Positions 9,655 through 50,326 of a stretch of DNA of 64,000 bases are shown here, piece by piece. Source of the stretch: Tagaea sp. (lineage in GTDB: Bacteria > Pseudomonadota > Alphaproteobacteria > CACIAM-22H2); the NCBI GenBank assembly GCA_044378015.1, contig JBILXZ010000001.1, positions 145-64,144 of the forward strand. The letters are read 5' to 3'. Position 1 is the first letter of the stretch, and the number at the start of each line of letters is the position of its first letter. The notes under the pieces were generated by a model. That model did not search any database and was not told the DNA's origin. It saw only the letters and a program-made list of their open reading frames with translations. The translations under genes were made by a program, and so were the position numbers.

Positions 9655-10197
9655 TCAACCCAGCAGCGCGGCCACGGCCGCGCCGAGATCTTCGTGCACG
9701 CCGACAGGCAGCACGGCATCGGGCAGACCCGCAGCCAAGGTTTTGGCGCCGTGGCCGGTGCGCACGAGATGGCGCGGGCAGCCGATCGCCGCGGCAGCTT
9801 GCAGATCGCGCAGACTGTCGCCGACGAAGGGTGTGGCGGCCGCGTCGGCCGCGAACATGGCGATGGCCTCGATCAGCATGCCGGGGGCCGGCTTGCGGCG
9901 CGTCGAAACCGGGCCGGGCGCGTCGGGGCAATGGAAGATCGCGTCGAGTTTCGCGCCCTCGCGCGCCAGCCCGTCGCGCAGGGCCTCGTGGATGCGCGCC
10001 AGCATCGCTTCGTCGAAGATGCCGCGCCCGATCGGCGACTGGTTCGTGCACACGGCCACGGCATATCCCGCGCGATTGAGGCGCGCGACGGCCGCCGCCG
10101 CTCCGGGCAGGAACACAAGCTCGCCCGGATGCTTCACATAGTCGGCACGATCGACGTTCAGCACGCCGTCGCGATCGAGGAGGACGAGTCGGGCCAT
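9655..10197 (-). CDS. gmhB: D-glycero-beta-D-manno-heptose-1,7-bisphosphate 7-phosphatase (HAD-IIIA)
   Basis: LDRDGVLN, CTNQSPIGRG, RRKPAPGM, GDSLRDLQAA and VRTG motifs align with E. coli GmhB. Confidence 0.85.
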   Translation of the reverse strand: MARLVLLDRDGVLNVDRADYVKHPGELVFLPGAAAAVARLNRAGYAVAVCTNQSPIGRGIFDEAMLARIHEALRDGLAREGAKLDAIFHCPDAPGPVSTRRKPAPGMLIEAIAMFAADAAATPFVGDSLRDLQAAAAIGCPRHLVRTGHGAKTLAAGLPDAVLPVGVHEDLGAAVAALLG

Positions 10198-11084: not shown

Positions 11085-11753
11085 CTACGCCGCCTTCGCG
11101 AGTTGCACGAGGGCTCCGGCTTCCAGGCGCAGTTCGGGATGGCGCGAGTCGCGCACCAACTGCATATTGTGCGTCGCGACCACGATCGTCGTGCCGAGGC
11201 GGTTGAGCTCTTCGAACAGCCGCATCAAGCGCAGCGCGATGCGGTCGTCGACGTTGCCGGTGGGCTCGTCCGCGATCAGAAGCTTGGGCCGCCCGATCAC
11301 CGCGCGCGCGATCGCCACGCGCTGCTTTTGCCCGCCCGACAAAGTCGGCGGCAGCGCGCCGAGATGGTCGCCCAACCCGACCCACACCAGCAACTCGGCC
11401 GCGTGCTCGCGCAGCTGCGCCTCGTCTGCCCCCTGCACGCGCAGAGGCAAGGCCACGTTGTCGATGACCGAAAGATGATCGAGCAGGCGGAAATCCTGGA
11501 ATACCGTGCCGATGCGTCGGCGCAAGCCCGGCAGATCGCGCCGCGCCATGCGGGCGACGTCGCGCCCGAACATATGGACGGTGCCGCGGCTCGGCAGGCG
11601 TGCGAGATAAAGCAGCGAAAGCAGCGACGATTTGCCCGCCCCCGACGCGCCGGTCAGAAAATGGAAACTGCCGGGCTGCAGCGCGAAGCTCACGTCGCGC
11701 AGCACTTCGGGCCCCAGGCCGTAACGCAAGCCCACTTGTTGGAAGACGATCAT
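11085..11753 (-). CDS. ftsE: cell-division ATP-binding protein FtsE
   Basis: Walker A GASGAGKSS, signature LSGGQKQRVAIARA, Walker B LLIADEPTGNVD; start taken at MIVFQQVGLRY (the track Met at 11774 is 7 codons upstream). Confidence 0.9.
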   Translation of the reverse strand: MIVFQQVGLRYGLGPEVLRDVSFALQPGSFHFLTGASGAGKSSLLSLLYLARLPSRGTVHMFGRDVARMARRDLPGLRRRIGTVFQDFRLLDHLSVIDNVALPLRVQGADEAQLREHAAELLVWVGLGDHLGALPPTLSGGQKQRVAIARAVIGRPKLLIADEPTGNVDDRIALRLMRLFEELNRLGTTIVVATHNMQLVRDSRHPELRLEAGALVQLAKAA

Positions 11754-11832
11754 TGGCAGGGCGGATGCTGGCACGCGCGGGCAAGACGGCGCAAGCTTGC
11801 CCCCGTGCCGTCTAAGGCCCTATAAAAGCCGT

Positions 11833-12702
11833 ATGATTCTGGCGTGCCCAACTTGCTCTACGCGCTTTCGCGTGCCCGATGGTGCCCTCGGCTCTGCCGG
11901 GCGCACCGTAAGGTGCGGCAATTGCGGGCATAGCTGGCACCAAAAGCCGCGCCAAGCGATCCTCGAAATCAATCCGCACTTCCCCAAGACGGCAAAACGG
12001 ATGCGCCAGAGCTTGGGCGACGACGAACAGCTCGACATGCCGGATGCGCCGGGCCGCAGCTATTCGCCTCCCCCGCCGCCGCCTATTCCGAAGGCGGCCC
12101 CGCCGCCGCCGCCGCCGATCAAAGAGTCCGAAGAGCCCGTCCCGGTTTCCCTGAGCTTCCAACGCACGATGGAAGCGGTGCGCGAGACCATCGCCACCGA
12201 AGCCGACCCGATGCCGGCCGCCCTCAAGCCAGCGGACGAGGCGACGGCGCCCGCGCCGAAGCGCCGCTCGATCGCGGCAGCGATCGGCTGGCTTCTGTTC
12301 GCGTTGACGACCTCGGTGCTCGGGGCCGGGATTTTCGCGCAGACCGAAATCATGGCGCGCTTCCCCGAGACGCGGGCGATCTACCAAGCGCTGCAGTTTC
12401 CCGTCCCTTTGCCGGGCGAAGGGCTCGAAGTCGTGTCGCCCGTGCCGACGCGCGGCACGCTCGACGGCGCGCCGGTCCTTCTCGTCACGGGCCGCGTGCG
12501 AAACGCAACCGACCTGCCGCGAAACGTGCCGCAGATGCGCGCCGTCCTGCGCGACGCAAACGGCACCGAGGTCGCAAGCTGGGAATTCGCCGCCGAGATC
12601 GCGCGCCTCGAGCCGGGCGAGGAGACGGCGTTCGCGACCCACCTCCCCAGCCCGCCCGCCGACGCCAACCAGCTTCAGATCGTGTTCTTGGACAAATACT
12701 GA
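11833..12702 (+). CDS. MJ0042-type zinc-ribbon / DUF3426 membrane protein with a Pro-rich linker
   Basis: MILACPTCSTRFRVPDG...RCGNCGHSW zinc ribbon; poly-Pro tract (PPPPPIPKAAPPPPPPI); TM; C-terminal DUF3426-like domain; divergent from ftsEX as in many alphaproteobacteria. Confidence 0.7.
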   Translation: MILACPTCSTRFRVPDGALGSAGRTVRCGNCGHSWHQKPRQAILEINPHFPKTAKRMRQSLGDDEQLDMPDAPGRSYSPPPPPPIPKAAPPPPPPIKESEEPVPVSLSFQRTMEAVRETIATEADPMPAALKPADEATAPAPKRRSIAAAIGWLLFALTTSVLGAGIFAQTEIMARFPETRAIYQALQFPVPLPGEGLEVVSPVPTRGTLDGAPVLLVTGRVRNATDLPRNVPQMRAVLRDANGTEVASWEFAAEIARLEPGEETAFATHLPSPPADANQLQIVFLDKY

Positions 12703-39067: not shown

Positions 39068-39799
39068 TCAGACTTTCCAGTCCGGATCGGGCACGGTCTG
39101 GAACACCGAACGCAAGCCTTCGGACCAGCGGCGGCGAATGTCGGAGAGATAGACGTCTTTTTCGTCGAGCCTGCGGCGCACGGCCAAGCGGCATTCGTCG
39201 CGTCGCACGATCGCGATGTCGACCGGTAGGCCGACCGACACGTTCGAGCGCAGCGTGGAATCCATCGAGATCAGCGCGCATTTTGCCGCTTCGTTGAGGG
39301 TCGTCTTGCCCATCACGACGCGGTCCAGGATCGGTTTTCCGTATTTCGTTTCGCCGATCTGGAAATAGGGCGTCTCGGCAGAAGCTTCGATGAAATTGCC
39401 GGCCGAGTAGATCTGGAACAGGCGCAAGCGGCGGCCCTTGAGCTGGCCGCCCAGAATGAGCGAGATCGAGAACTCGGTTCCCTGCTCCTTGAGCCGGGCC
39501 GCGTCGAGATCGTAGATCTCGCGCACCGCCCGGCCCGCGAGCCGGGCCGCCTCGAACATCGAGGGCACGTTGGCGAGCGTCTCGGTGCGGTCCTTGCCCA
39601 TGCCCTCGGTCAGTAGATTGACGACCGACTGGGAGATCGCGAGATTGCCCGCGGTCAGCAGCACGAGGCAGCGCTCGCCCGGATTTTCCCAGACATGCAT
39701 CTTGTTGAAGACCGCGACGTGGTCCACGCCCGCGTGCGTGCGCGAATCCGAACACAGAACGAGCCCGTCTTCGAGCAGCAATCCAACCCCGTATGTCAT
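39068..39799 (-). CDS. Anbu (ancestral beta-subunit) proteasome homolog
   Basis: MTYGVGLLLEDGLVLCSDSRTHAGVDHVAVFNKMHVWENPGERCLVLLTAGNLA: Thr2 Ntn-nucleophile arrangement and Anbu-specific block; about 243 aa. Confidence 0.8.
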   Translation of the reverse strand: MTYGVGLLLEDGLVLCSDSRTHAGVDHVAVFNKMHVWENPGERCLVLLTAGNLAISQSVVNLLTEGMGKDRTETLANVPSMFEAARLAGRAVREIYDLDAARLKEQGTEFSISLILGGQLKGRRLRLFQIYSAGNFIEASAETPYFQIGETKYGKPILDRVVMGKTTLNEAAKCALISMDSTLRSNVSVGLPVDIAIVRRDECRLAVRRRLDEKDVYLSDIRRRWSEGLRSVFQTVPDPDWKV

Positions 39800-39841
39800 T
39801 GCGGAAACTCTCCCCTGGCGCCCTCGAAAGGGCGGATGTCG

Positions 39842-40789
39842 CTAGCGCGCGAGCCCGAAATCGTCGGCGATGGCCGTGCCGATGCGGGCATTGGTCTCGA
39901 CGATTTCGGTCAGGAACTCGTGCAGACCCTGATTGAAGATGTTGTCGATCGAATCGAAGCGAAGACGGTTGTAGGTCTGGTCGGCGAGACGCGCCGACAC
40001 GTAGTCGCGTCCGAACATTTCGCGCAGCTCGTCGAGCAGGCGCGTGAGTTCGCGCAGACACGAGCGCAGCGAGCGCGGCATGTCCTCGCGCAGGATCAGC
40101 AGCTCGGCCACGCGCCGCGGCACGATCGCGTCGCGATAGAGGCGCCGGTAGGCCTGGAAGGCCGACACCGAACGCAGCAGCGCGCCCCACTGGTAGTAGT
40201 CGACCGCGCCGCCCACGTCGCGCGTGGAGGGCAGCAGCACGTGGTATTTGACGTCGAGCAGGCGGGCGGTCGCGTCCGCGCGCTCGAGGAAGGTGCCGAC
40301 GCGCACGAACCGGTAGGCCGCATCGCGCGTCATCGTGCCGTAGCCGACGCCGCGGAACAGATGGCTGCGTTCCTTGACCCAGTCGAAAAACGCGCGCAGG
40401 CCCATCGCCTCGATCTTTGGGTAGTCGAGGGCGCGCATCTCGAGCCAGGTCCCGTTCAGCGCTTCCCACATTTCGGTGGTGATCTGCGTGCGCATCGCGC
40501 GCGCGTTTTCGCGCGCCATCCACAGGGCCGACCGGATCGACGAGGGATTGTCGGCCGCAAGGGCCAGAAACTCGATGACGTTGCGCGCGTCGATTTTCTT
40601 GCCCGTCTCCTTGAAGGGCGCCTCGCAGCCCGCCACGACAAGGGCCGGCTCCCACTGCGTCTGCTGGGAATAGGCATCCGTCGCGGTCAGCGACATGCGG
40701 TAGGAGACGTCGAGCAGGCGCGCCGTGTTTTCGGCGCGCTCCATGTAGCGGGACATCCAGTAGAGCGAATCGGCGGCGCGCGACAGCAT
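39842..40789 (-). CDS. alpha-E (DUF403) domain protein
   Basis: MLSRAADSLYWMSRYMERAENTARLLDV N-terminal signature of the alpha-E family; GAGGA SD overlaps the upstream stop. Confidence 0.85.
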   Translation of the reverse strand: MLSRAADSLYWMSRYMERAENTARLLDVSYRMSLTATDAYSQQTQWEPALVVAGCEAPFKETGKKIDARNVIEFLALAADNPSSIRSALWMARENARAMRTQITTEMWEALNGTWLEMRALDYPKIEAMGLRAFFDWVKERSHLFRGVGYGTMTRDAAYRFVRVGTFLERADATARLLDVKYHVLLPSTRDVGGAVDYYQWGALLRSVSAFQAYRRLYRDAIVPRRVAELLILREDMPRSLRSCLRELTRLLDELREMFGRDYVSARLADQTYNRLRFDSIDNIFNQGLHEFLTEIVETNARIGTAIADDFGLAR

Positions 40790-40791
40790 GG

Positions 40792-42192
40792 CTAATCCTC
40801 CAGCACCCAGGTGTCTTTGGTGCCGCCGCCTTGCGAGGAATTGACGACGAGCGAACCTGCGCGCAACGCCACGCGCGTGAGGCCGCCGGGCACGAGCTTC
40901 ACGTCCTTGCCGACCAGCAGATAGGGCCTGAGATCGACGTGGCGCGGGGCCACGCCCTCGTCGACGAAAGTGGGGCATGTCGACAGCGCCAGCGTGGGCT
41001 GGGCGATGTAGTTGTCGGGATCGGCGAGGATGCGCAGGCGGAAATCCTCGATCTCGGCCTTGGTCGATTTCGGGCCCACGAGCATGCCGTAGCCGCCCGA
41101 GCCGTGCACTTCCTTCACCACCAGCTCGGCCAGGTGCTCGAGGGCGTATTTGAGGTCGTCCTTGTTGCGCAGCGTGTAGGTCGGCACGTTGGCGAGCTTG
41201 GGCTCTTCGCCCAGATAGAAGCGCACCATCTCCGGCACGTAAGGATAGACCGATTTGTCGTCGGCAACGCCCGTGCCCACCGCGTTGGCAAGGTTGACGT
41301 TGCCGCGGCGGTAGGCGTCGAACAGGCCGCGCACGCCGAGAACGCTGTCGGGATTGAAGGCGGCGGGATCGATGAAGGCGTCGTCCAGGCGCCGATAGAT
41401 CGTGTCGACGCGCTTGGGGCCCGCGACCGTGCGCATGTAGACGAAACCGTCGTCCACGAACATGTCCTGGCCTTCGACCAGCTCCACGCCCATCTGCTCG
41501 GCGAGGAAAACGTGCTCGAAATAGGCCGAATTGTAGGCCCCCGGCGTCATCACGACGACCGTGGGCTCGTCCTTGTTGAGGCAGTTTTCCGGCGGCAGCG
41601 AGCGCAGCGACTTGAGGAGTTCGTCGGGATAGTGGCCCACGGGACGCACGCGGTTGGCGCTGAACAGCTCGGGAAAAAGCCGCATCATGGCTTCGCGGTT
41701 CTCGAGCATGTAGGACACGCCCGACGGCGTGCGCGCGTTGTCTTCGAGCACGTAGAACTGGTTCTCGGACACGCGCACCACGTCGATGCCCGCGATGTGC
41801 GTGTAGACGTTGCCCGGCAGCGCCACGCCGATCATCTCGGGCCGGTACTGCGAATTGGCGACGACCAGCTCCCGCGGGATCTTGCCCGCGCGCACGATGT
41901 TCATGCCGTGATAGACGTCGTAGAGAAAAGCGTTGAGCGCGCGAACGCGCTGGACGAGCCCTTCGGACAGGGCGTGCCATTCGGCGCCCGTAATCACGCG
42001 CGGGATGAGATCGAACGGAATAAGCCGCTCGGGATCGCCGCCCTCGCCGTAGACGGCGAAGGTAATGCCGAGGCGGCGGAAAAGCAGATCGGCCTCGCGG
42101 CGCTTGGCGTCCGTCTGGCTTGCGGGCATGCGCTCGAGCCATTCCGCCAATTCGGCGTAGGCCGCGCGAACCGCACCGTCCGCCGCGCTCAT
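40792..42192 (-). CDS. circularly permuted ATP-grasp type 2 (DUF404/DUF407) amidoligase
   Basis: Conserved CP-ATP-grasp blocks (NAFLYDVYHG, ARTPSGVSYMLENR, VKEVHGSGGYGMLVGP); start placed at internal ATG 42192, because the track ORF begins with TTG at 42324. Confidence 0.85.
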   Translation of the reverse strand: MSAADGAVRAAYAELAEWLERMPASQTDAKRREADLLFRRLGITFAVYGEGGDPERLIPFDLIPRVITGAEWHALSEGLVQRVRALNAFLYDVYHGMNIVRAGKIPRELVVANSQYRPEMIGVALPGNVYTHIAGIDVVRVSENQFYVLEDNARTPSGVSYMLENREAMMRLFPELFSANRVRPVGHYPDELLKSLRSLPPENCLNKDEPTVVVMTPGAYNSAYFEHVFLAEQMGVELVEGQDMFVDDGFVYMRTVAGPKRVDTIYRRLDDAFIDPAAFNPDSVLGVRGLFDAYRRGNVNLANAVGTGVADDKSVYPYVPEMVRFYLGEEPKLANVPTYTLRNKDDLKYALEHLAELVVKEVHGSGGYGMLVGPKSTKAEIEDFRLRILADPDNYIAQPTLALSTCPTFVDEGVAPRHVDLRPYLLVGKDVKLVPGGLTRVALRAGSLVVNSSQGGGTKDTWVLED

Positions 42193-42425
42193 CTCGTCGA
42201 AAGCGGCCCCTGCCGAGGACTGCGTCTGCCTCACCCCATCCTCCTTGGCTTGCCCACCCGCAACAAGCGCGGCCGGTCGCTTCCCGTCGCCTTGGCATGC
42301 AACGCCCGGACCAGACTCTGGCAATTCGTACAGGGCTTTGCAACCAATCGAATCGCGGGCAATGGAATCGCCGAAAGGGATGAGCTAGGGTCCCGGCTTC
42401 GCGATTTGCCACAAAAGAGGTCGTT

Positions 42426-43541
42426 TTGGATTCGTTTTCGCAGGCAGCTCTCGGGGCAGCAGTCGGCTACGCCGTCGCCGGGCGGCGTTTGGGCCGCCGC
42501 GCCATCGCCTTCGGGGCGCTTGCAGGCACCGTTCCCGATCTCGACAATGTCGCCTTGCTGCTGACCGACGGCTGGGCCGAGTGGCGACATCACCGCGGCC
42601 TCACGCACGGGCTTTTCTTCGCGCCCGTGATGGGGCCGCTGCTGGGCTGGATCGCATGGCGCATGCACAACCGCACCCGGCCCTTCGAACCGGCGGGCAG
42701 CCACGATGCCGCCCCTGCCTGGATGGCGCTGTTTTTCTTCGGGCTCATAACCCACCCGCTGCTCGATTTTTTCACGATCTACGGAACCCAGCTTTTGGCG
42801 CCGTTCGACGCGACCCGTTTTGCGGCACCCGGGCTCGGCATCATCGATCCCGGCTACACGCTTCCGTTGCTGGCGGCATTGATCGTGGCCCTTTGGCGGC
42901 CGCGCGCGGGCCTCTCGTTCCTCGCCGTCTTCGCCGCTCTTTTTGCGACGAGCGTCTATCTGTTCTACGGCCTGTCGAACAACGCCAAGGTCGAGGCGCG
43001 CGCGCGCGCGCAGCTTGCCGCCGAAGCGGTCGAACCGGCCGACGTGCGCGTCTACACGACGATCTTCCAGCCGTGGCTGCGCCGCATCGTCGTCGACGAG
43101 CCCGAAGGTGCGCGCGTCGGGTTCGCCACGGCGGACCAGAAAGACGCGATCGCGTGGCTGTGCTTCGCACGCCCCCGCCATCCGGCGATCCAGGCCGCTT
43201 TGGCCACGCCCGAGGGCAAGCTGTTCGCCTGGTTTGCGATGGGCGAAGTGTGGCCGAGCCTTGCTGCGGCCGACGACGGCTCGACCGTGGTGCGGCTCAC
43301 CGACCGTCGCTACGGCGTGCCGGGGACGACCGCCCAAGGCTGGTGGGGCATCGAGATGCGCATCGCCGCCGACGGCAGCGTGGCCGAAGCGCCGCGCCGC
43401 ATCGATCTGCCGCGCGGCGCCGACGGCGACGCGATCGGCCAGCTTTTCGCGGCGGCGCGCGGGCAGGCGACCGCGCTTTTTGCGCACGCCGCAAGCGCGC
43501 AGGACGCAGCCGAGAAGTGCCGCGCGTCGCGCGCCGGCTAG
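42426..43541 (+). CDS. membrane-bound metal-dependent hydrolase (YdjM/DUF457-like) with a C-terminal extension
   Basis: N-terminal MDSFSQAALGAAVGYAV...PDLD...HRGLTHGL pattern of DUF457; 371 aa, longer than E. coli YdjM. Confidence 0.55.
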   Translation: MDSFSQAALGAAVGYAVAGRRLGRRAIAFGALAGTVPDLDNVALLLTDGWAEWRHHRGLTHGLFFAPVMGPLLGWIAWRMHNRTRPFEPAGSHDAAPAWMALFFFGLITHPLLDFFTIYGTQLLAPFDATRFAAPGLGIIDPGYTLPLLAALIVALWRPRAGLSFLAVFAALFATSVYLFYGLSNNAKVEARARAQLAAEAVEPADVRVYTTIFQPWLRRIVVDEPEGARVGFATADQKDAIAWLCFARPRHPAIQAALATPEGKLFAWFAMGEVWPSLAAADDGSTVVRLTDRRYGVPGTTAQGWWGIEMRIAADGSVAEAPRRIDLPRGADGDAIGQLFAAARGQATALFAHAASAQDAAEKCRASRAG

Positions 43542-43837
43542 ACGTATTTGTCGCCGCGCAGCACCGACACGTCGCCGAGCCACGCGATGGTGGCAAAGCG
43601 CGGGAAATAATGTTCGGCAAGCCGGGCCATGATTTTCTCGGCCACGGATTCGCTGACGACCGCATCGATGCGCAAATTCAGTTCGCCCACCCGTCCCATG
43701 CGCTTGCCGCGCGAACCCTGGCCGTGCGCTTCGACTATCGTGTAGCCGGAGGCGCCCAGCCGCATCATGTCTTCGGCGATCTTGGGGGCCACGACCTCTT
43801 CGGCGACGACCGTGATGAGTTTCAGCGCCACAGTCAT
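43538..43837 (-). CDS. sbtB: P-II-like signalling protein SbtB
   Basis: 99-aa GlnB-fold protein (KLITVVAEEVVAPKIAEDMMRLGASGYTIVEAHGQG) 1 nt downstream of sbtA. Confidence 0.7.
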   Translation of the reverse strand: MTVALKLITVVAEEVVAPKIAEDMMRLGASGYTIVEAHGQGSRGKRMGRVGELNLRIDAVVSESVAEKIMARLAEHYFPRFATIAWLGDVSVLRGDKYV

Positions 43838-43838
43838 G

Positions 43839-44807
43839 TCACGACCCTTTCAGCATCTGCGCGAAAGCGAAAAAGAGCGGCAGCCCAACCACCAGATTGA
43901 ACGGAAAAGTGATCGCAAGCGACGCGGTCAGATAAAAGCCCGGATTGGCCTCGGGCAGCGCTATGCGCACGGCGGCCGGCGCTGCGATGTAGGAGGCGCT
44001 TGCCGCCAGCACGCCGAGGATCGTCGCCCCGCCGACCGACAAGCCGATCTCGTGGCCCACGAATACGCCGAGAATGCCGTGCAGAACCGGCATCGCGATC
44101 GCAAACGCGATGAGGAACGGACCGACCTGTTTGAAGTCGCCCAAGCGCCGTGCCGCGACAAGGCCCATATCGAGCAGGAACAGGCACAAAGCGCCCTGGA
44201 AAGGATCGGCGAAAAAGGGCGCGACCGATTTGTAGCCCGTGGGACCGGCCAGAAAGCCGATCGCAAGCCCGCCGACCAGCAGCACGACGCTCTTGCCCGC
44301 CAGCACTTCGGGCAGTGCTGCCCGCCAATCGCCGTCCGACGCCCCTTTGAGCTTGGCGAGCAGCAAGGCCACGACGATGGCCGGCACTTCCATGACCGCC
44401 AGCACGGCCGGCATGAAACCTTCGGCCGGCAGCCCCGCCGACTGGAGATAGGCCGTGGCGGCGATGAACGTGACGGCCGAGACCGAACCGTAATGCGCCG
44501 CGATCGCCGCCGCGTTCGACGCGTCGAACTTGCCGAACCGCGTGAGGATATGGAACGACCAGAGCGGGATCGCCGTGCCGAGCCCGAAGCCCGCGAGCAA
44601 TGCCAGTATCACCGTGCCGAACGGCGCCACCGACAACGCGACCCCGCCTTTGAGGCCGATCGCGAACAGAAGATAGATCGACAGCGCCGCGTAGATTTGG
44701 TCCGGAAACTTGAGGTCGCTGCGCACCAGATGGGCGACCGCCCCCAGCACGAAGGACAGCACCATCGGCGACAGCAGGTTGAGGCGAACCAGTTCGAGCG
44801 TCGTCAT
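43839..44807 (-). CDS. sbtA: sodium-dependent bicarbonate transporter SbtA-family permease (DUF897)
   Basis: 322 aa, 10-TM inverted-repeat layout with blocks LSIYLLFAIGLKGG / LFLLDMGLVAARRL typical of SbtA; paired with sbtB. Confidence 0.8.
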   Translation of the reverse strand: MTTLELVRLNLLSPMVLSFVLGAVAHLVRSDLKFPDQIYAALSIYLLFAIGLKGGVALSVAPFGTVILALLAGFGLGTAIPLWSFHILTRFGKFDASNAAAIAAHYGSVSAVTFIAATAYLQSAGLPAEGFMPAVLAVMEVPAIVVALLLAKLKGASDGDWRAALPEVLAGKSVVLLVGGLAIGFLAGPTGYKSVAPFFADPFQGALCLFLLDMGLVAARRLGDFKQVGPFLIAFAIAMPVLHGILGVFVGHEIGLSVGGATILGVLAASASYIAAPAAVRIALPEANPGFYLTASLAITFPFNLVVGLPLFFAFAQMLKGS

Positions 44808-44918
44808 CGGGCACCAATCGGAAAGCGCGAAATTACAGCAACGATACGCGGTATTTGCGGACAAGCTGGGCGCGATAATGGCTTGGCTTTCGGCATTCGG
44901 ATAGCCATATTCGCACGC

Positions 44919-46322
44919 ATGAAAATCATATTCGCTGCCATCGCGTTTGCCTTTGCCGCCTTCCCCGCCTTTGCCGCCGCAGCAGATGCGCCCAAACTGG
45001 CCGGCGATCTTATGGGTCTTGCCTGGGTCTTGCCGTTCGTCGCGATCCTGCTTGGCATTGCATTGGGACCGCTGCTGGCGGCGCATTTGTGGCACGCGCA
45101 TTACGGCAAATTCGCGGTTGCCTGCGCAGCCGCGTTTTTGGCGCCGTGCGCCGCGATATTCGGCGCCGACGTGGCACTCTACGAGTTTCTGCACACGATG
45201 CTGCTCGAATACATTCCGTTCATCGTGATGCTGTTTTCGCTTTACGTCGTGGCCTGCGGCGTGCGGTTGCGCGGCGATCTTGTCGGAACGCCGGCGCTCA
45301 ATACGGGCATGCTGGCCTTCGGCACCCTGATCGCGAGCGTGATGGGAACAACCGGTGCATGCATGCTGCTGATCCAGCCGATGCTTCGCGCGAACGCGTG
45401 GCGAAAAAAGAACGTGCATGTTTTCGTGTTCTTCATCTTCCTGGTCGGCAATGTCGGCGGCAGCCTGACCCCGCTGGGCGATCCGCCGCTTTTCATCGGC
45501 TTTCTGGAGGGTGTTGATTTCTTCTGGACGACGAAGGCGATGCTGGTCCCCATGCTGCTCGTCGCAGTGCCGCTGCTGGTCGCGTTCTACGCGCTCGACA
45601 GCTATCTCTTTCGCAGCGAAGGGGCCCCACCCGGTCCGAGCGGCGAAACCTTCGCGGTCGAAGGCAAAATCAATCTGCTTCTGCTGGCGGGCATCGTGGC
45701 GGCCGTGCTGCTGTCGGGCGTGTGGCGCCCGAATATGCCCGTCGAGTTCTACTACACGCCCGTCGCCCTCGAAAGCATCGTGCGCTCGGTTCTGCTGCTG
45801 GCCCTCGCCTGGGCCTCGCTCGCATTGACAGACAACGACAGCCGCATGGCGAACGGATTCAGCTGGGAGCCGATCGCGGAAGTCGCGAAGCTCTTCGTTG
45901 GCATTTTCGTGACGATCGTGCCCGTGCTTGCGATCATCCGCTCAGGCCAGGAGGGGGCGCTCGGCGGCCTGATCGCGCTGCTCAACAGCGACGGCCGACC
46001 CGACAACCTGATGTATTTCTGGATCACCGGAATCCTGTCGGGTTTCCTCGACAACGCCCCCACATATCTGCTGTTCTTCAATCTGGCGGGCGGCGATCCC
46101 GAAACATTGATGGGACCGCTCGCAACCACGTTGCTGGCGATCTCGTGCGGCTCGGTTTTCATGGGCGCGCTCACCTATATCGGCAACGCGCCCAATTTCA
46201 TGGTCAAGGCGGTGGCCGAAAAAGCCGGCATCAGGATGCCCAGTTTCTTCGGCTATATGCTGTGGTCGGCCGCGTTCCTGCTGCCGCTTTTTGCGCTCGT
46301 CACGCTGGTGTATTTTCGCTAG
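44919..46322 (+). CDS. NhaD/ArsB-superfamily ion transporter (putative Na+/H+ antiporter), paralog 1
   Basis: 467 aa; hydrophobic N-terminus MKIIFAAIAFAFAAFPAFA; 10-12 TM; GDPPLF motif; highly similar to the next gene. Confidence 0.65.
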   Translation: MKIIFAAIAFAFAAFPAFAAAADAPKLAGDLMGLAWVLPFVAILLGIALGPLLAAHLWHAHYGKFAVACAAAFLAPCAAIFGADVALYEFLHTMLLEYIPFIVMLFSLYVVACGVRLRGDLVGTPALNTGMLAFGTLIASVMGTTGACMLLIQPMLRANAWRKKNVHVFVFFIFLVGNVGGSLTPLGDPPLFIGFLEGVDFFWTTKAMLVPMLLVAVPLLVAFYALDSYLFRSEGAPPGPSGETFAVEGKINLLLLAGIVAAVLLSGVWRPNMPVEFYYTPVALESIVRSVLLLALAWASLALTDNDSRMANGFSWEPIAEVAKLFVGIFVTIVPVLAIIRSGQEGALGGLIALLNSDGRPDNLMYFWITGILSGFLDNAPTYLLFFNLAGGDPETLMGPLATTLLAISCGSVFMGALTYIGNAPNFMVKAVAEKAGIRMPSFFGYMLWSAAFLLPLFALVTLVYFR

Positions 46323-46352
46323 CTTCGCAAAAAACACTGCGGAGCCGGGCCC

Positions 46353-47759
46353 ATGCGCGTTGCTGGATTGGTCGTTTCGTTCCTTCTGATTGCCACCCCC
46401 GCTTTCGCCGCCGAGGGCCTCGACGGCTCGAAGCTCGGCATCGTCTGGGCCGTTCCGTTCGTTGGCATCCTCTTGTCGATCGCGATCCTGCCGCTCGCCG
46501 CGCCGAAGCTTTGGCACCACCATTATGGCAAGATCGCGCTCGGCTGGGCGCTCGCGTTTTTGCTGCCCTTCGCCGCGATCGCCGACCTCGGCACGGTCGT
46601 GGAGACGACCGCGCACGTGCTGCTGGGCGAGTACATTCCGTTCATCATCCTGATCGGCGCGCTGTTCACGGTCGCGGGCGGTGTGCTGTTGCGCGGCAAC
46701 ATCCACGGCAGTGCGGGCATGAACACGGGCCTGCTGGCCATCGGCACCGGCATCGCGAGCTTCACCGGCACCACGGGTGCCGCCATGCTGATGATCCGGC
46801 CGATGCTGCGCGCCAACGACAACCGGCGCCACAACGCGCATGTGTTCGTGTTTTTCATCTTCCTCGTCGCCAATGTCGGCGGCAGCCTCACCCCGCTCGG
46901 CGATCCGCCGCTGTTCCTGGGCTTCCTCAAGGGTGTCGATTTCTTCTGGCCCACGGTGCATCTGTTCTTGCCGATGCTGACGGTAACCGCGCTGCTGCTC
47001 GCCGCGTTCTATGTCGTCGACAGCTACTACTATCGTTTCGACACGCATCTCCCGCCCAAGCCCGATCCAACGCCGGACACGCGCCTGCGCCTGGAAGGCC
47101 GCCTCAATCTGCTGCTGTTGGGCGGCGTGGTCGGCGCCGTGCTGCTGTCGGGCGCTTGGAAATCGGGCGTCGAATTCAAGGTTTTGGGCGTGGCCTTGTC
47201 GCTCGAAGGGCTGGTGCGCGACGCGGCTCTGCTGGGCCTGGCGGCCGTGTCGGTCGCGGCCACCTCGAAGCAGGTGCGCGACGACAACGGATTCAGCTGG
47301 GGCCCGATCCTCGAAGTCGCCAAGCTGTTCTTCGGCATTTTCGTGACGATCGTGCCGGTCATCGCGATGCTGCGCGCGGGCACCGACGGCGCTTTCGCGG
47401 GCCTCGTCCATCTCGTCACGCGGCCCGACGGCACGCCCAACGTCGCGATGTATTTCTGGATGACCGGGCTCCTGTCGAGCTTCCTCGACAATGCGCCCAC
47501 CTATCTCGTGTTCTTCAATCTGGCGGGCGGGGACCCGGCGACGCTGATGGGCCCGCTCGCGGCCACGCTTGCGGCGATCTCGGCCGGTGCGGTGTTCATG
47601 GGTGCCAACTCGTATATCGGCAACGCCCCCAACTTCATGGTCAAGGCCGTCGCCGAAGAGGCGGGCGTGCGCATGCCGAGTTTCTTCGGCTACATGGGCT
47701 GGGCGTTCGTGTTCCTGATCCCGTGCTTCGCGCTGACGACCTGGCTGTTCTTCATCTGA
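46353..47759 (+). CDS. NhaD/ArsB-superfamily ion transporter, paralog 2 (tandem duplicate)
   Basis: 468 aa; colinear with the upstream paralog through LEYIPFI...GTTGA...LRAN...HVFVFFIFLV.NVGGSLTPLGDPPLF...DNAPTYL...GNAPNFMVKAVAE. Confidence 0.65.
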   Translation: MRVAGLVVSFLLIATPAFAAEGLDGSKLGIVWAVPFVGILLSIAILPLAAPKLWHHHYGKIALGWALAFLLPFAAIADLGTVVETTAHVLLGEYIPFIILIGALFTVAGGVLLRGNIHGSAGMNTGLLAIGTGIASFTGTTGAAMLMIRPMLRANDNRRHNAHVFVFFIFLVANVGGSLTPLGDPPLFLGFLKGVDFFWPTVHLFLPMLTVTALLLAAFYVVDSYYYRFDTHLPPKPDPTPDTRLRLEGRLNLLLLGGVVGAVLLSGAWKSGVEFKVLGVALSLEGLVRDAALLGLAAVSVAATSKQVRDDNGFSWGPILEVAKLFFGIFVTIVPVIAMLRAGTDGAFAGLVHLVTRPDGTPNVAMYFWMTGLLSSFLDNAPTYLVFFNLAGGDPATLMGPLAATLAAISAGAVFMGANSYIGNAPNFMVKAVAEEAGVRMPSFFGYMGWAFVFLIPCFALTTWLFFI

Positions 47760-48069
47760 TGCGCGCTTGCGCTGCCGCGCGCGCCACGGCCAGCAGCGCG
47801 TCGCGGTCGTCGGCGGCGGCACTCTTGCAGCGCCGCTCGGTGCGGCAAACCTCGCAGATATGCGTGAGGGTCCAGCCGCCGCGCGCCGGTTCGACCGCAA
47901 CCGGCCGCATCGCCCCGCCGCATTCGTCCGCCCGGTCGCCCGGATTGACATCGACATGGCGCGACCACAGGCATTCCGGGCAATGATTCGTATAGCCGTC
48001 GCCGGCGACTTGCGTGCCGCAATGGCCGCACACAAAATCCTCCATGCGGCGCTGGAAGCGTTTGCTCAT
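47752..48069 (-). CDS. RNHCP-domain zinc-ribbon protein
   Basis: FVCGHCGTQV...YTNHCPECLWSRHVD...CEVC matches the RNHCP signature; ATG overlaps the chrA stop (ATGA). Confidence 0.7.
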   Translation of the reverse strand: MSKRFQRRMEDFVCGHCGTQVAGDGYTNHCPECLWSRHVDVNPGDRADECGGAMRPVAVEPARGGWTLTHICEVCRTERRCKSAAADDRDALLAVARAAAQARIR

Positions 48070-49370
48070 AGGCCCAAAAGATAGCGCGCAAGGCCGAAGG
48101 CCGCCCCTGCGATCACCAACCAATGGATCGCAAGGCCGACGCGCACCAAGAGGCCGAGGGCTGCCGCAGCCACCGCGATCGCGACGAAATCCACACCGCT
48201 TGCAGGCCAGAACACAGCCTGGCCAAGAAACACGCCGAGATTGAGGATCACGCCGACGACCGCGGCCGTGATCGCGCCCAGGGCTGCCGAAGCCGCCTTG
48301 TTCTCGTGCAGGCCCTCGACATAGGGCGCGCCGGCGAGAATGAACAGAAAGCTCGGCAGGAACGTAACGTATGTGGCCAGCAACGCCGCGACGGTCGCAG
48401 CCGTCAGCGGGTCGGCCGCACCGGCATTCCAGCCCGCGAAGAAACCGACATATTGCAGCACCAGGATGAGCGGCCCGGGCGTCGTCTCGGCGAGCGCCAA
48501 ACCGTTCAGCATGTCGGCGGGCGTGAGCCAACCGTAGAGATTGACCGCCGCGTCCGCGACATAAGGGAGAACGGCATAGGCGCCGCCGAACGTGACGAAG
48601 GCCGCCTTCGTGAACAGGGCTGCCACGTCGGCAAAAGGCTTCGCGCCCATCGCGAACAGCACGCCCACGACCGGGATCGCCCACAGCACGGCGAACACGG
48701 CGCCCAAGCCGGCAAAACGCAGCATCGGCCTGGCCGGCAGCAGCACGTCGTCCGGCACGTTGCCGCCGGTGCTGCTCGCGTGCCCGCCGGTCGCAAAGGG
48801 CGAAGCCGTTGTCCCTCGCGCCGACGACACGCCCACGAGAGCCGCCGCTGCCACGACCCACGGGAACCCGACGCCGAAAAAATGGATGGCAACGAAGGCC
48901 GCGGCGGCAAGTGCTGCCGCTTGCCAAGTTTGCAGCGCCTTCTTGCCGATGCGCCAGACCGCATGCAGCACGACGGCAACGACGACCGGTTTGAGCCCGT
49001 CGAAAATCGCCCCGACGGCGCCCGTCTCGCCGTGCACGGCCGCAATGTAGGACAGCACCAGCATGCACAAGGCGCCCGGCAGCACGAACAAGGCGCCCGC
49101 CGCAACCCCGCCCCATGTGCCGTGCAGGCGCCAGCCGATATAGGTGGCAAGCTGCTGCGCTTCGGGGCCCGGCAGCAAAGTGGCGAACGAAAGCCCGCGC
49201 AGGAAACTGCGCTGGCCGATCCAACGCTGCTTGTCGACGAGATCGTGCTGCATCATCGCGATCTGCCCGGCGGGCCCGCCGAAGGACAGGCAGCCCAGCT
49301 TGAGCCAATAGGCGAGGGCGGTCCGGTAGCTCGGCCGGTCGCCGAAAGCGGGGGTGGAAGCGTCGGGCAT
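48066..49370 (-). CDS. chrA: chromate efflux transporter (long, two-domain ChrA)
   Basis: Duplicated CHR domains (LGCLSFGGPAGQIAMMQ and FVTFGGAYAVLPYV); AGGAGG SD 5 nt upstream of ATG 49370. Confidence 0.85.
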   Translation of the reverse strand: MPDASTPAFGDRPSYRTALAYWLKLGCLSFGGPAGQIAMMQHDLVDKQRWIGQRSFLRGLSFATLLPGPEAQQLATYIGWRLHGTWGGVAAGALFVLPGALCMLVLSYIAAVHGETGAVGAIFDGLKPVVVAVVLHAVWRIGKKALQTWQAAALAAAAFVAIHFFGVGFPWVVAAAALVGVSSARGTTASPFATGGHASSTGGNVPDDVLLPARPMLRFAGLGAVFAVLWAIPVVGVLFAMGAKPFADVAALFTKAAFVTFGGAYAVLPYVADAAVNLYGWLTPADMLNGLALAETTPGPLILVLQYVGFFAGWNAGAADPLTAATVAALLATYVTFLPSFLFILAGAPYVEGLHENKAASAALGAITAAVVGVILNLGVFLGQAVFWPASGVDFVAIAVAAAALGLLVRVGLAIHWLVIAGAAFGLARYLLGL

Positions 49371-49399: not shown

Positions 49400-50326
49400 C
49401 TAGCGCACCTCTTGCCCGCGCACACCCTTGGCGACGACCGGTTTGCCCATAGCGCGCCAGCCGACGATGCCCGTGTCGAGAAACGACGCATCGTAGCCTT
49501 GGGCGCGCAGGGCTGCCGCCGTGTCGCGGCTGAACGAAAAACCGTACACGCAATAGACGACGATTTTGCGTGCGCGCGGTAAGCCCGCTTTGGCGCCGTC
49601 CGGATCGGCCGGATCGAGGCGCAGCGCTTGCGGCAGCATGTCGGTTCCGGCCTCGAAGGCGGGCGCGCGCCGCGCATCGACGAAAACGCCGTCGAAACCG
49701 TCGAGCGCCTCGGCCGCAACGCCGTGCAAGGCGGGCCGTGCTACCTCGCCCCGCCACCGCCGCTCGGCCCCAGTCCAGTCGATCGTGGCCAGAAACGCAT
49801 CGACATAGCGCCCGGCTTCGGCGCCGTAGTCGAGATGGTAGGCGTGTTCGTACATGTCGAGCGCAAGCAACGGCGTTGCGCCCGCAAAACCCATCGCATG
49901 GTCGGCGCCCCATTGGATGGCCAAACGCCCGTCGCGATTCTCGCGCACCAGCACGACCCAGCCCGATCCGCCCGCCAACGCCTTCGCGCAGGCCGCAAAG
50001 CGCCTTTCCCAGATTTCGAACGCGCCGAAATCGCGCGCGATCGCCGCAGCGAATTCCGCGGAGGGCGGTTTCGACGGTGCGAGCGCTTCGAAATAGATTT
50101 CGTGAAGCACCATCGAGTTGTAGGCGGCGAGCTCCTCGCGCTTGAGGGCGTTCAACTCGAAAGCAGGAGCGGAAACGTCGAGCGCATCGAGCCGCCCGGC
50201 GATCGCGTTGAGGCGCTTCACCGCCCCGGCGTAGTTGTTGGCGTAGTGGCTCGCGACCAGCTTTTCGCTGAAACCGGGATAGGATTCGGGTTTAGCCGCC
50301 AAAGGCTTCAGATAACGCATGTCCAT
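49400..50326 (-). CDS. Fe/Mn-SOD-fold (ChrC-like) domain fused to a rhodanese (ChrE-like) domain
   Basis: N-terminal SOD-like fold (SHYANNYAGAV...LHEIYFE...WGADHAMGF...LALDMYEHAYHLDY) with partial metal-ligand set; C-terminal rhodanese active-site loop VVYCVYGFSFSRD. Confidence 0.75.
   Translation of the reverse strand: MDMRYLKPLAAKPESYPGFSEKLVASHYANNYAGAVKRLNAIAGRLDALDVSAPAFELNALKREELAAYNSMVLHEIYFEALAPSKPPSAEFAAAIARDFGAFEIWERRFAACAKALAGGSGWVVLVRENRDGRLAIQWGADHAMGFAGATPLLALDMYEHAYHLDYGAEAGRYVDAFLATIDWTGAERRWRGEVARPALHGVAAEALDGFDGVFVDARRAPAFEAGTDMLPQALRLDPADPDGAKAGLPRARKIVVYCVYGFSFSRDTAAALRAQGYDASFLDTGIVGWRAMGKPVVAKGVRGQEVR

Follow-up and report, generated by a model that had tools for sequence, protein, structure and literature searches.

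Back-to-back genes for a predicted bicarbonate importer and for two membrane carriers occur in a 64,000-nucleotide (nt) stretch of DNA from Tagaea sp. (GenBank assembly GCA_044378015.1, contig JBILXZ010000001.1, positions 145 to 64,144 of the forward strand; hereafter, the window), which raises the question of whether the four genes form one system for inorganic carbon uptake. The preliminary description of this locus had proposed that the carriers are NhaD/ArsB-type permeases, a recently duplicated pair of putative Na+/H+ antiporters that supply the Na+ gradient used by the importer, SbtA. We favor, with moderate confidence, a different reading: sbtA-sbtB and the two carrier genes, referred to here as citA and citB, would be two independent transport modules that share a divergent intergenic region, and their adjacency would be a lineage-specific gene order in Rhodospirillales-like alphaproteobacteria.

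The gene layout itself was confirmed. sbtA (positions 43839-44807, minus strand) encodes a 322-amino acid (aa) protein that starts with MTTLE and belongs to PF05982 (Sbt_1, the former DUF897; E = 2e-119), and sbtB (43538-43837, minus strand), which encodes a 99-aa protein of the P-II fold (PF00543, E = 5e-17), starts 1 nt downstream of sbtA on the same strand. Across 111 nt (44808-44918), presumed to be the promoter/operator region of both gene pairs, citA-citB is read in the divergent direction, with citA (44919-46322, plus strand; permease A, 467 aa) being the divergent "A" paralogue and citB (46353-47759, plus strand; permease B, 468 aa) the "B" paralogue. As had been described, the two permeases are colinear, aligning over their full length by BLASTP, and share the blocks GDPPLF, DNAPTYL, and GNAPNFMVKAVAE. 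The spacer between their genes (46323-46352, plus strand) is exactly 30 nt long and contains GGAG 9 nt 5' of the citB ATG, which is consistent with a single operon. The citA-citB spacing is also short (33-83 nt) in L002, L003, L165, and a JGI contig (L-numbers are labels of the compared loci and assemblies). The four-gene unit contains no regulator gene and is bounded on both sides by convergent, overlapping genes: the overlap is 4 nt between YdjM and sbtB and 8 nt between an RNHCP-domain gene and citB.

Two surveys were carried out on how often the two kinds of genes are found together. A metagenome scan for CitMHS_2 (PF16980), the family of CitA and CitB, returned 80 loci at 56-68% identity, and a scan of one genome per species for sbtA returned 80 loci with a short-form SbtA at 53-76% identity, distributed over Alphaproteobacteria, Myxococcota, Chloroflexota, Deinococcota, Bacteroidota, Verrucomicrobiota, Planctomycetota, Gemmatimonadota, and others. 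sbtA was located beside CitMHS_2 in a single metagenomic locus (1/80; L085), and 2 of the 80 species, both alphaproteobacterial (L006 and L009), had a CitMHS_2 gene at most 10 kb from sbtA. A second CitMHS_2 copy within 10 kb was present in 1/80 metagenomic loci and a tandem pair in 0/80. No β-carbonic anhydrase gene was detected near the 80 metagenomic CitMHS_2 loci, where a P-II gene was found only in L085, and antiporter genes were absent from the recurrent neighbor gene clusters of the 80 sbtA loci. A conserved pairing of sbtA with CitMHS_2 across bacteria was thus rejected by both surveys, and an inorganic carbon context for CitMHS_2 elsewhere by the metagenomic one. The proposed Na+ supply coupling found no comparative support, with CitMHS_2 absent at 78/80 sbtA loci and sbtA absent at 79/80 CitMHS_2 loci.

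The adjacency was limited to one alphaproteobacterial lineage with syntenic flanks. The full arrangement of the window recurred in L002, L165, and the JGI contig; L166 and L085 contained sbtB-sbtA-sbtA facing a single B-like CitMHS_2 gene, and L006 and L009 held variants. The sister group of the window's lineage has two sbtA copies opposite one CitMHS_2 gene. L003 and L004 contained citA-citB without sbtAB at the corresponding site, preceded, as in L165, by a chemoreceptor gene and a small open reading frame (ORF), so that a close relative keeps the permease pair in the absence of the importer. RNHCP, chrA, greA, and carAB were also syntenic in the close-relative genomes. Most simply, these results can be read as follows: sbtAB forms a module of its own, which in one lineage either arrived beside CitMHS_2 genes or disappeared from there, and neither SbtA nor CitMHS_2 needs the other. 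Adjacency within one lineage is not to be read as a functional system.

We examined the family assignment of the two permeases, and the NhaD/ArsB label was not borne out. CitA matched PF16980 with 592.1 bits (profile positions 4-448 of 448) and CitB with 634 bits (positions 2-448 of 448), against a cutoff of 25.7 bits, and the signal for the general CitMHS family PF03600 was borderline (CitA, 38.9 bits; CitB, 31.8 bits; cutoff, 31.9 bits). No NCBIfam model matched CitA or CitB at E ≤ 0.01, nor did any when the limit was relaxed to E ≤ 10, and Pfam ArsB (PF02040) was not among the matches at E ≤ 0.01; membership in NhaD or ArsB was therefore rejected, PF16980 fitting instead. The names carried by CitMHS_2 homologues in databases ("sodium:proton antiporter" and "Na+/H+ antiporter NhaD/arsenite permease-like") are automatic electronic labels that stem from the shared COG-level bin COG1055, "NhaD/arsenite permease-like," and are unsupported by family model or experiment. 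PF16980 is large (~940 clusters at 50% identity, E ≤ 1e-30), and a literature search on PF16980/CitMHS_2 found no characterized member and nothing relevant beyond a modeling study of human Oca2, in which the family is listed in the ion-transporter (IT) superfamily together with ArsB, Na_sulph_symp, NhaB, DctM, GntP, and CitMHS (PMC10372470). A search for literature on SbtA with NhaD returned nothing relevant. No citrate metabolism genes are adjacent to citA-citB. Human gut metagenome contigs with CitMHS_2 at 57-58% identity included L139, L144, L145, L146, L150, and L151, and L146 contained two CitMHS_2 copies ~4 kb apart.

Structural comparison pointed to a resemblance to anion carriers. A profile of 17 CitMHS_2 members matched no solved structure among PDB sequences at E ≤ 1. 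An AlphaFold2 model of CitB built from an alignment of only 17 sequences was of medium quality (predicted local distance difference test [pLDDT], 71; predicted template modeling [pTM] score, 0.73), and Foldseek returned 12 PDB matches at E ≤ 1e-3, all of them IT superfamily carriers: Pho90, the yeast phosphate carrier, NaDC3, NaDC1, ArsB, VcINDY, and NaS1 (TM scores of 0.45-0.59, probability of 1.0, and sequence identity of 12-16%). The significant structural neighbors are all anion carriers. TRAP-M subunits were weaker matches (E of 2.9e-3 and above), and the Na+/H+ exchanger NHA2 was not significant in this search. The moderate-quality model displayed the IT superfamily fold, with two inverted repeats that each contain a reentrant hairpin and a broken helix, and conserved blocks are located at hairpin tips and helix breaks in the first half (residues 139-143 and 176-186) and in the second half (379-383, DNAPT; 423-427, GNAPN). 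Both CitA and CitB keep GTTGA / SLTPLGDPP and LDNAPT / IGNAPN as pseudosymmetric hairpin and broken-helix motifs, and conserved motifs in these places are the pattern described for this fold (PMC4621753). The proteins also possess hydrophobic, signal peptide-like N termini (CitA, …AFPAFA/AAAD, 44919-44990; CitB, …ATPAFA/AEG, 46353-46420), which run up to an AxA-like site (AFA/A) and occur in all orthologues. In the CitB model, the N-terminal segment forms a helix of its own, set apart from the first membrane helix by a disordered linker, and the N-terminal sequences suggest that these polytopic carriers lose a signal peptide by cleavage. CitA and CitB are probably elevator-type secondary carriers of an orphan family, and their modeled fold neighbors favor an anion as the substrate.

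The tandem duplication is old. CitA and CitB are 58% identical over their full length by BLASTP (E = 2e-166), and in the codon alignment the identity was 59% for amino acids and 67% for nucleotides. Each copy has its own orthologues: A-type proteins are 90% (L002), 73% (L165), and 64% (L003) identical to CitA, and B-type proteins are 99% (L001), 83% (L002), 77% (L165), and 73% (L003) identical to CitB, with A-versus-B cross-comparisons at 55-60%. A neighbor-joining tree built from 96 family members did not join the A and B clades as sisters; single-copy genes of other lineages fell between them, and citB was closest to such single-copy genes. The pairwise identity, the separate orthologue sets, and the separate clades indicate an old paralogy with both copies maintained, and the recent amplification suggested previously was refuted; a recent tandem duplication was rejected accordingly. 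The ratio of nonsynonymous to synonymous substitution rates (dN/dS) between orthologues was 0.10-0.30 for all four genes and 0.10-0.27 for citA, rough values since the GC content limits change at synonymous sites. Among 141 columns that are ≥95% conserved in 83 homologues of other lineages, CitB keeps 140 and CitA 136, the B clade departing at one column and the A clade at five, including R153Q/H and D290S/T, by which a conserved Arg and a conserved Asp are lost. Both paralogues look functional and are under purifying selection, as judged from these substitution patterns. The few charged-residue changes of the A clade would be compatible with a changed specificity or with a specialized role as a heterodimer subunit, and subfunctionalization, which had also been suggested, is plausible from the sequences.

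The reading that CitA and CitB are NhaD-like Na+/H+ antiporters, which would expel the Na+ imported by SbtA or build its gradient and be coexpressed with it through the shared promoter region, was weighed against these results. Cyanobacterial SbtA is Na+ dependent (PMC8352866), the divergent arrangement across 111 nt recurs in about eight related assemblies, and the IT superfamily includes Na+/H+ antiporter families, all of which agree with such a role, as do the COG and NCBI labels. These points are countered by the lack of any NhaD, ArsB, or other NCBIfam match in a family with no characterized member found, by the anion carriers that make up the significant structural neighbors, by both 80-locus surveys, in which no recurrent neighbor cluster of sbtA was an antiporter, and by L003/L004, which retain citAB without sbtAB. 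In the intergenic region, conservation with L002, the closest relative, extends over blocks such as AATGGCTTGGCTTTCG but was not seen in the alignment with more distant relatives. No sigma-70 consensus match was found in 44808-44918, an Rfam scan of this region upstream of citA detected no family at E ≤ 10, including any Na+/Li+ riboswitch families in the searched set, which also speaks against the antiporter reading, and its RNA folding was not unusual (z = 0.49); a riboswitch or structured leader was rejected on the Rfam and folding results. We consider the antiporter role quite unlikely. The chance is similarly small that CitMHS_2 is a functional accessory of SbtA-SbtB in this lineage, coregulated via the shared divergent region. 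Such an accessory could, for example, be a CitA/CitB heterodimer that recycles Na+ or that moves a counter-anion or a second inorganic carbon species. If true, an accessory role would be the first physiological role for PF16980 and would add a new component to bicarbonate uptake outside cyanobacteria.

Other substrates were considered for CitA and CitB. They could carry an organic hydroxy-, keto-, or carboxylic acid unrelated to inorganic carbon, a reading that draws on a same-strand D-2-hydroxyacid dehydrogenase gene after CitMHS_2 in 17 of the 80 metagenomic loci (10 of the 17 had it called at a distance of 13-91 nt, and in the others it overlaps the match), on a LUD-domain (lactate utilization-type) gene just upstream of CitMHS_2 in 6/80, and on the di- and tricarboxylate carriers NaDC1/3, VcINDY, and INDY among the structural neighbors. 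The dehydrogenase-linked loci, however, share PncB, RmuC, and LOG-like neighbors and therefore probably represent one Burkholderiales-type lineage counted repeatedly; no such dehydrogenase adjoins citAB in the window, and the fold matches phosphate, sulfate, and arsenite carriers just as well. The string PncB-(LUD-domain protein)-CitMHS_2-D-2-hydroxyacid dehydrogenase-RmuC was observed in L093, L095, L103, L106, L110, and L114 and also in L120, L123, L125, L134, and others, at positions ~11350-12400. The dehydrogenase linkage is the only operon-like association found for CitMHS_2, so hydroxy- or keto-acid transport is a lead, but as an explanation for the window we regard it as unlikely. Still less probable, in our view, is an alliance of CitA/CitB with the convergent ChrA gene cluster downstream of them for the transport of an inorganic oxyanion (sulfate, chromate, or a related stress anion). 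The juxtaposition of citAB with the RNHCP, ChrA, and superoxide dismutase (SOD)-like/rhodanese genes is found in the window, L001, L002, L003/L004, L165, and the JGI contig, and thus even in the genome without sbtAB; a chrB-b cis-regulatory RNA precedes the ChrA cluster, and NaS1 (sulfate), Pho90 (phosphate), and ArsB (arsenite) are among the fold matches. Against this, citAB and the ChrA cluster are convergent on opposite strands and therefore not cotranscribed, greA and carAB are equally syntenic, so the arrangement is probably mere conserved gene order, and no ChrA gene lies beside the 80 more distant CitMHS_2 genes.

The cluster in question lies on the minus strand. It starts with the chrB-b RNA (RF03086, 50368-50425; 52.6 bits, cutoff of 36.5), and 41 nt downstream of this RNA lies the gene for an SOD_Fe_C/rhodanese fusion protein (49400-50326), which is followed by a gene for a ChrA chromate family transporter (48066-49370) and the RNHCP-domain gene (47752-48069). 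L001-L004 and L165 share this conserved string. A Chr family transporter is cited in a review as moving HCO3- in an autotrophic proteobacterium (PMC10880623), and the Chr protein of Thiomicrospira pelophila did not rescue carbonic anhydrase-less Escherichia coli (PMC12628692). On the other side of the unit, upstream of YdjM, 39068-42384 (minus strand) encodes a circularly permuted ATP-grasp protein, an Alpha-E domain protein, and a third protein, a trio that is syntenic with L002.

Several points weigh against our preferred reading of two independent modules, one for bicarbonate and one for an anion. The divergent layout of sbtA and CitMHS_2 persists despite changes in the copy number of both partners and in the paralogue type (A or B) next to sbtA, which leaves room for lineage-specific coregulation, and selection for coregulation could account for it. 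The term "anion carrier" for CitMHS_2 comes from fold neighbors of a CitB model of moderate quality, and the IT superfamily also holds the Na+/H+ antiporters NhaB, NhaC, and NhaD, for which Foldseek returned no matching structures, so the fold alone is not decisive. On the side of the importer, the clade of the window's protein has replacements at two of the four positions that are proposed to hydrogen-bond HCO3- in cyanobacterial SbtA, which makes bicarbonate a likely rather than a proven substrate.

The identification of sbtA-sbtB as a genuine SbtA family permease with its P-II-like partner was upheld. SbtA matched PF05982 (Transporter Classification 2.A.83) over the whole profile (398.9 bits; cutoff, 27; positions 1-308 of 308), and a profile of 18 SbtA relatives matched cyanobacterial SbtA (Slr1512, 7cye_A; E = 1.7e-45) in two stretches that cover both halves and are separated by the cytoplasmic loop of Slr1512 (approximately residues 173-210), which the protein in the window lacks. 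In Slr1512, Ser114, Tyr140, Ser324, and Ser327 were proposed from docking and mutagenesis to hydrogen-bond HCO3-, the site being a docking model (PMC8352866). Ser114 and Ser324 have invariant counterparts throughout the clade (Ser110 and Ser272 in the window's protein), and Leu136 and Ala275 take the places of Tyr140 and Ser327 of this modeled site. The best solved relative of SbtB is Thermus TTHA0516 (2cz4; E = 6e-25), followed by cyanobacterial SbtB structures (~1e-8). The T-loop of SbtB is short (GQGSRGKRMGRVGE) and carries the GxGSRG motif, and the protein ends with ...VLRGDKYV at residue 99; it has no C-terminal extension and no Cys pair, hence no redox R-loop, the cysteines of which are Cys105 and Cys110 in Slr1513 (PMC8352866). 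SbtA family genes of T. pelophila, a gammaproteobacterial autotroph, rescue carbonic anhydrase-less E. coli (PMC12628692), indicating that SbtA family activity is not confined to cyanobacteria. From its homology, SbtA is a predicted Na+/HCO3- symporter of the short form, and SbtB-gated bicarbonate import is the likely, best-supported function of the pair by homology and context.

The gene context of short-form sbtA in other species agrees with this function. Gene calling by ORF and by GC content at third codon positions (GC3) was unreliable in these high-GC loci, and the counts were redone by tblastn. A P-II gene was located directly downstream of sbtA in 63 of the 80 species, which represent at least eight phyla, and sbtA-sbtB is the conserved unit. 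A β-carbonic anhydrase gene was found within 2.5 kb of sbtA in 15/80, mostly codirectional and within ~100 nt; purK and/or purE was beside sbtA in 7/80 each, an isocitrate dehydrogenase gene was near sbtA in 6/80, and a LysR-type regulator gene was near it in at least 11/80. PurK and PurE carboxylate aminoimidazole ribonucleotide in a bicarbonate-dependent reaction. The carbonic anhydrase genes that share operons with sbtA in the short-form clade, together with purK/purE, also point to SbtA activity outside cyanobacteria.

Codirectional β-carbonic anhydrase genes at most ~100 nt from short-form sbtA, usually with sbtB, were observed in L034, L037, L038, L040, L045, L049, L050, L063, L064, L069, L073, and L077 (around position 10000 in most). 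The hosts include Bacteroidota, Verrucomicrobiota, and Planctomycetota, and the carbonic anhydrase of L037, the representative examined, has a signal peptide-like N terminus. This combination looks like a module of periplasmic carbonic anhydrase and bicarbonate importer in mostly nonphototrophic phyla. purK/purE adjoin sbtA-sbtB in L039, L051, L072, L042, L069, L078, L019, and L014, which belong to Thermus/Deinococcota, Verrucomicrobiota, and Planctomycetota, and the isocitrate dehydrogenase gene adjoins sbtA in six loci other than these. Tandem sbtA-sbtA(-sbtB) duplications were found in several lineages (L005, 574-2868; L013, 540-2838; L026, 10001-11962; L038, 10001-13288; L085, 1593-3900; L166, 4583-6893).

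Our model for the locus treats the modules separately. In the first, SbtA, a short-form elevator-type permease, would by homology import bicarbonate with Na+, and SbtB, a trimeric P-II-like protein, may insert its T-loop into the cytoplasmic exit of SbtA, as in the cyanobacterial complex, and gate or plug it according to adenine nucleotide status, again by cyanobacterial analogy. No gene for autotrophy stood out among the annotated flanking genes, and no systematic search was made across the window. In a probably heterotrophic host, the likely role of SbtA would be to supply bicarbonate for carboxylations. In the second module, the products of the citA-citB operon are most likely dimeric, cation-coupled elevator carriers for an anion, which may have slightly different specificities or form a heterodimer, and which we do not take to be dedicated NhaD-type Na+/H+ antiporters. 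The locus, as we read it, is an ordinary lineage-specific juxtaposition of a known bicarbonate uptake module and two members of an uncharacterized carrier family. Its main value is that PF16980 is an orphan family and that short-form SbtA-SbtB is widespread. The short-form pair occurs in mostly nonphototrophic phyla, repeatedly with β-carbonic anhydrase and purK/purE, neighbors that support bicarbonate supply to ordinary carboxylations beyond CO2-concentrating mechanisms. A search for the substrate of PF16980 could reasonably start from the conserved A/B pair and from the dehydrogenase-linked genes of other loci.

The DASS/SLC13 carriers, Pho90, and ArsB, the best structural matches of CitB, have the two-repeat layout and conserved Asn/Pro/Gly motifs in common with CitA and CitB, but they show no HMMER-detectable similarity to them, contain an SNT motif where xNAP is found here, and differ from them in the cleavable-looking signal peptide that CitA and CitB carry. 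The NhaD Na+/H+ antiporters (Transporter Classification 2.A.62) are in the same superfamily and the same COG1055 bin, but no family model links them to CitA and CitB, which Pfam puts in PF16980 with a borderline PF03600 signal. The cyanobacterial SbtA-SbtB pair (Synechocystis Slr1512/Slr1513; 7cye, 7egk) and the pair in the window are of the same Pfam family, with a P-II-like gene directly downstream in both, and the Ser114/Ser324 equivalents and the GxGSRG motif in the T-loop of the partner are present here. Slr1512 is longer (374 versus 322 aa), with a cytoplasmic loop at residues ~173-210 that is absent here, and has Tyr140 and Ser327 in place of Leu and Ala; cyanobacterial SbtB possesses the C-terminal redox R-loop and a longer T-loop. 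Unlike the cyanobacterial pair, the module described here belongs to an alphaproteobacterium. The closest group is the short-form SbtA and P-II proteins of noncyanobacterial phyla (for example, Thermus TTHA0516 as the P-II protein), in which the neighbors of sbtA are β-carbonic anhydrase, purK/purE, isocitrate dehydrogenase, and LysR regulator genes, whereas in the window sbtA faces a pair of CitMHS_2 genes.

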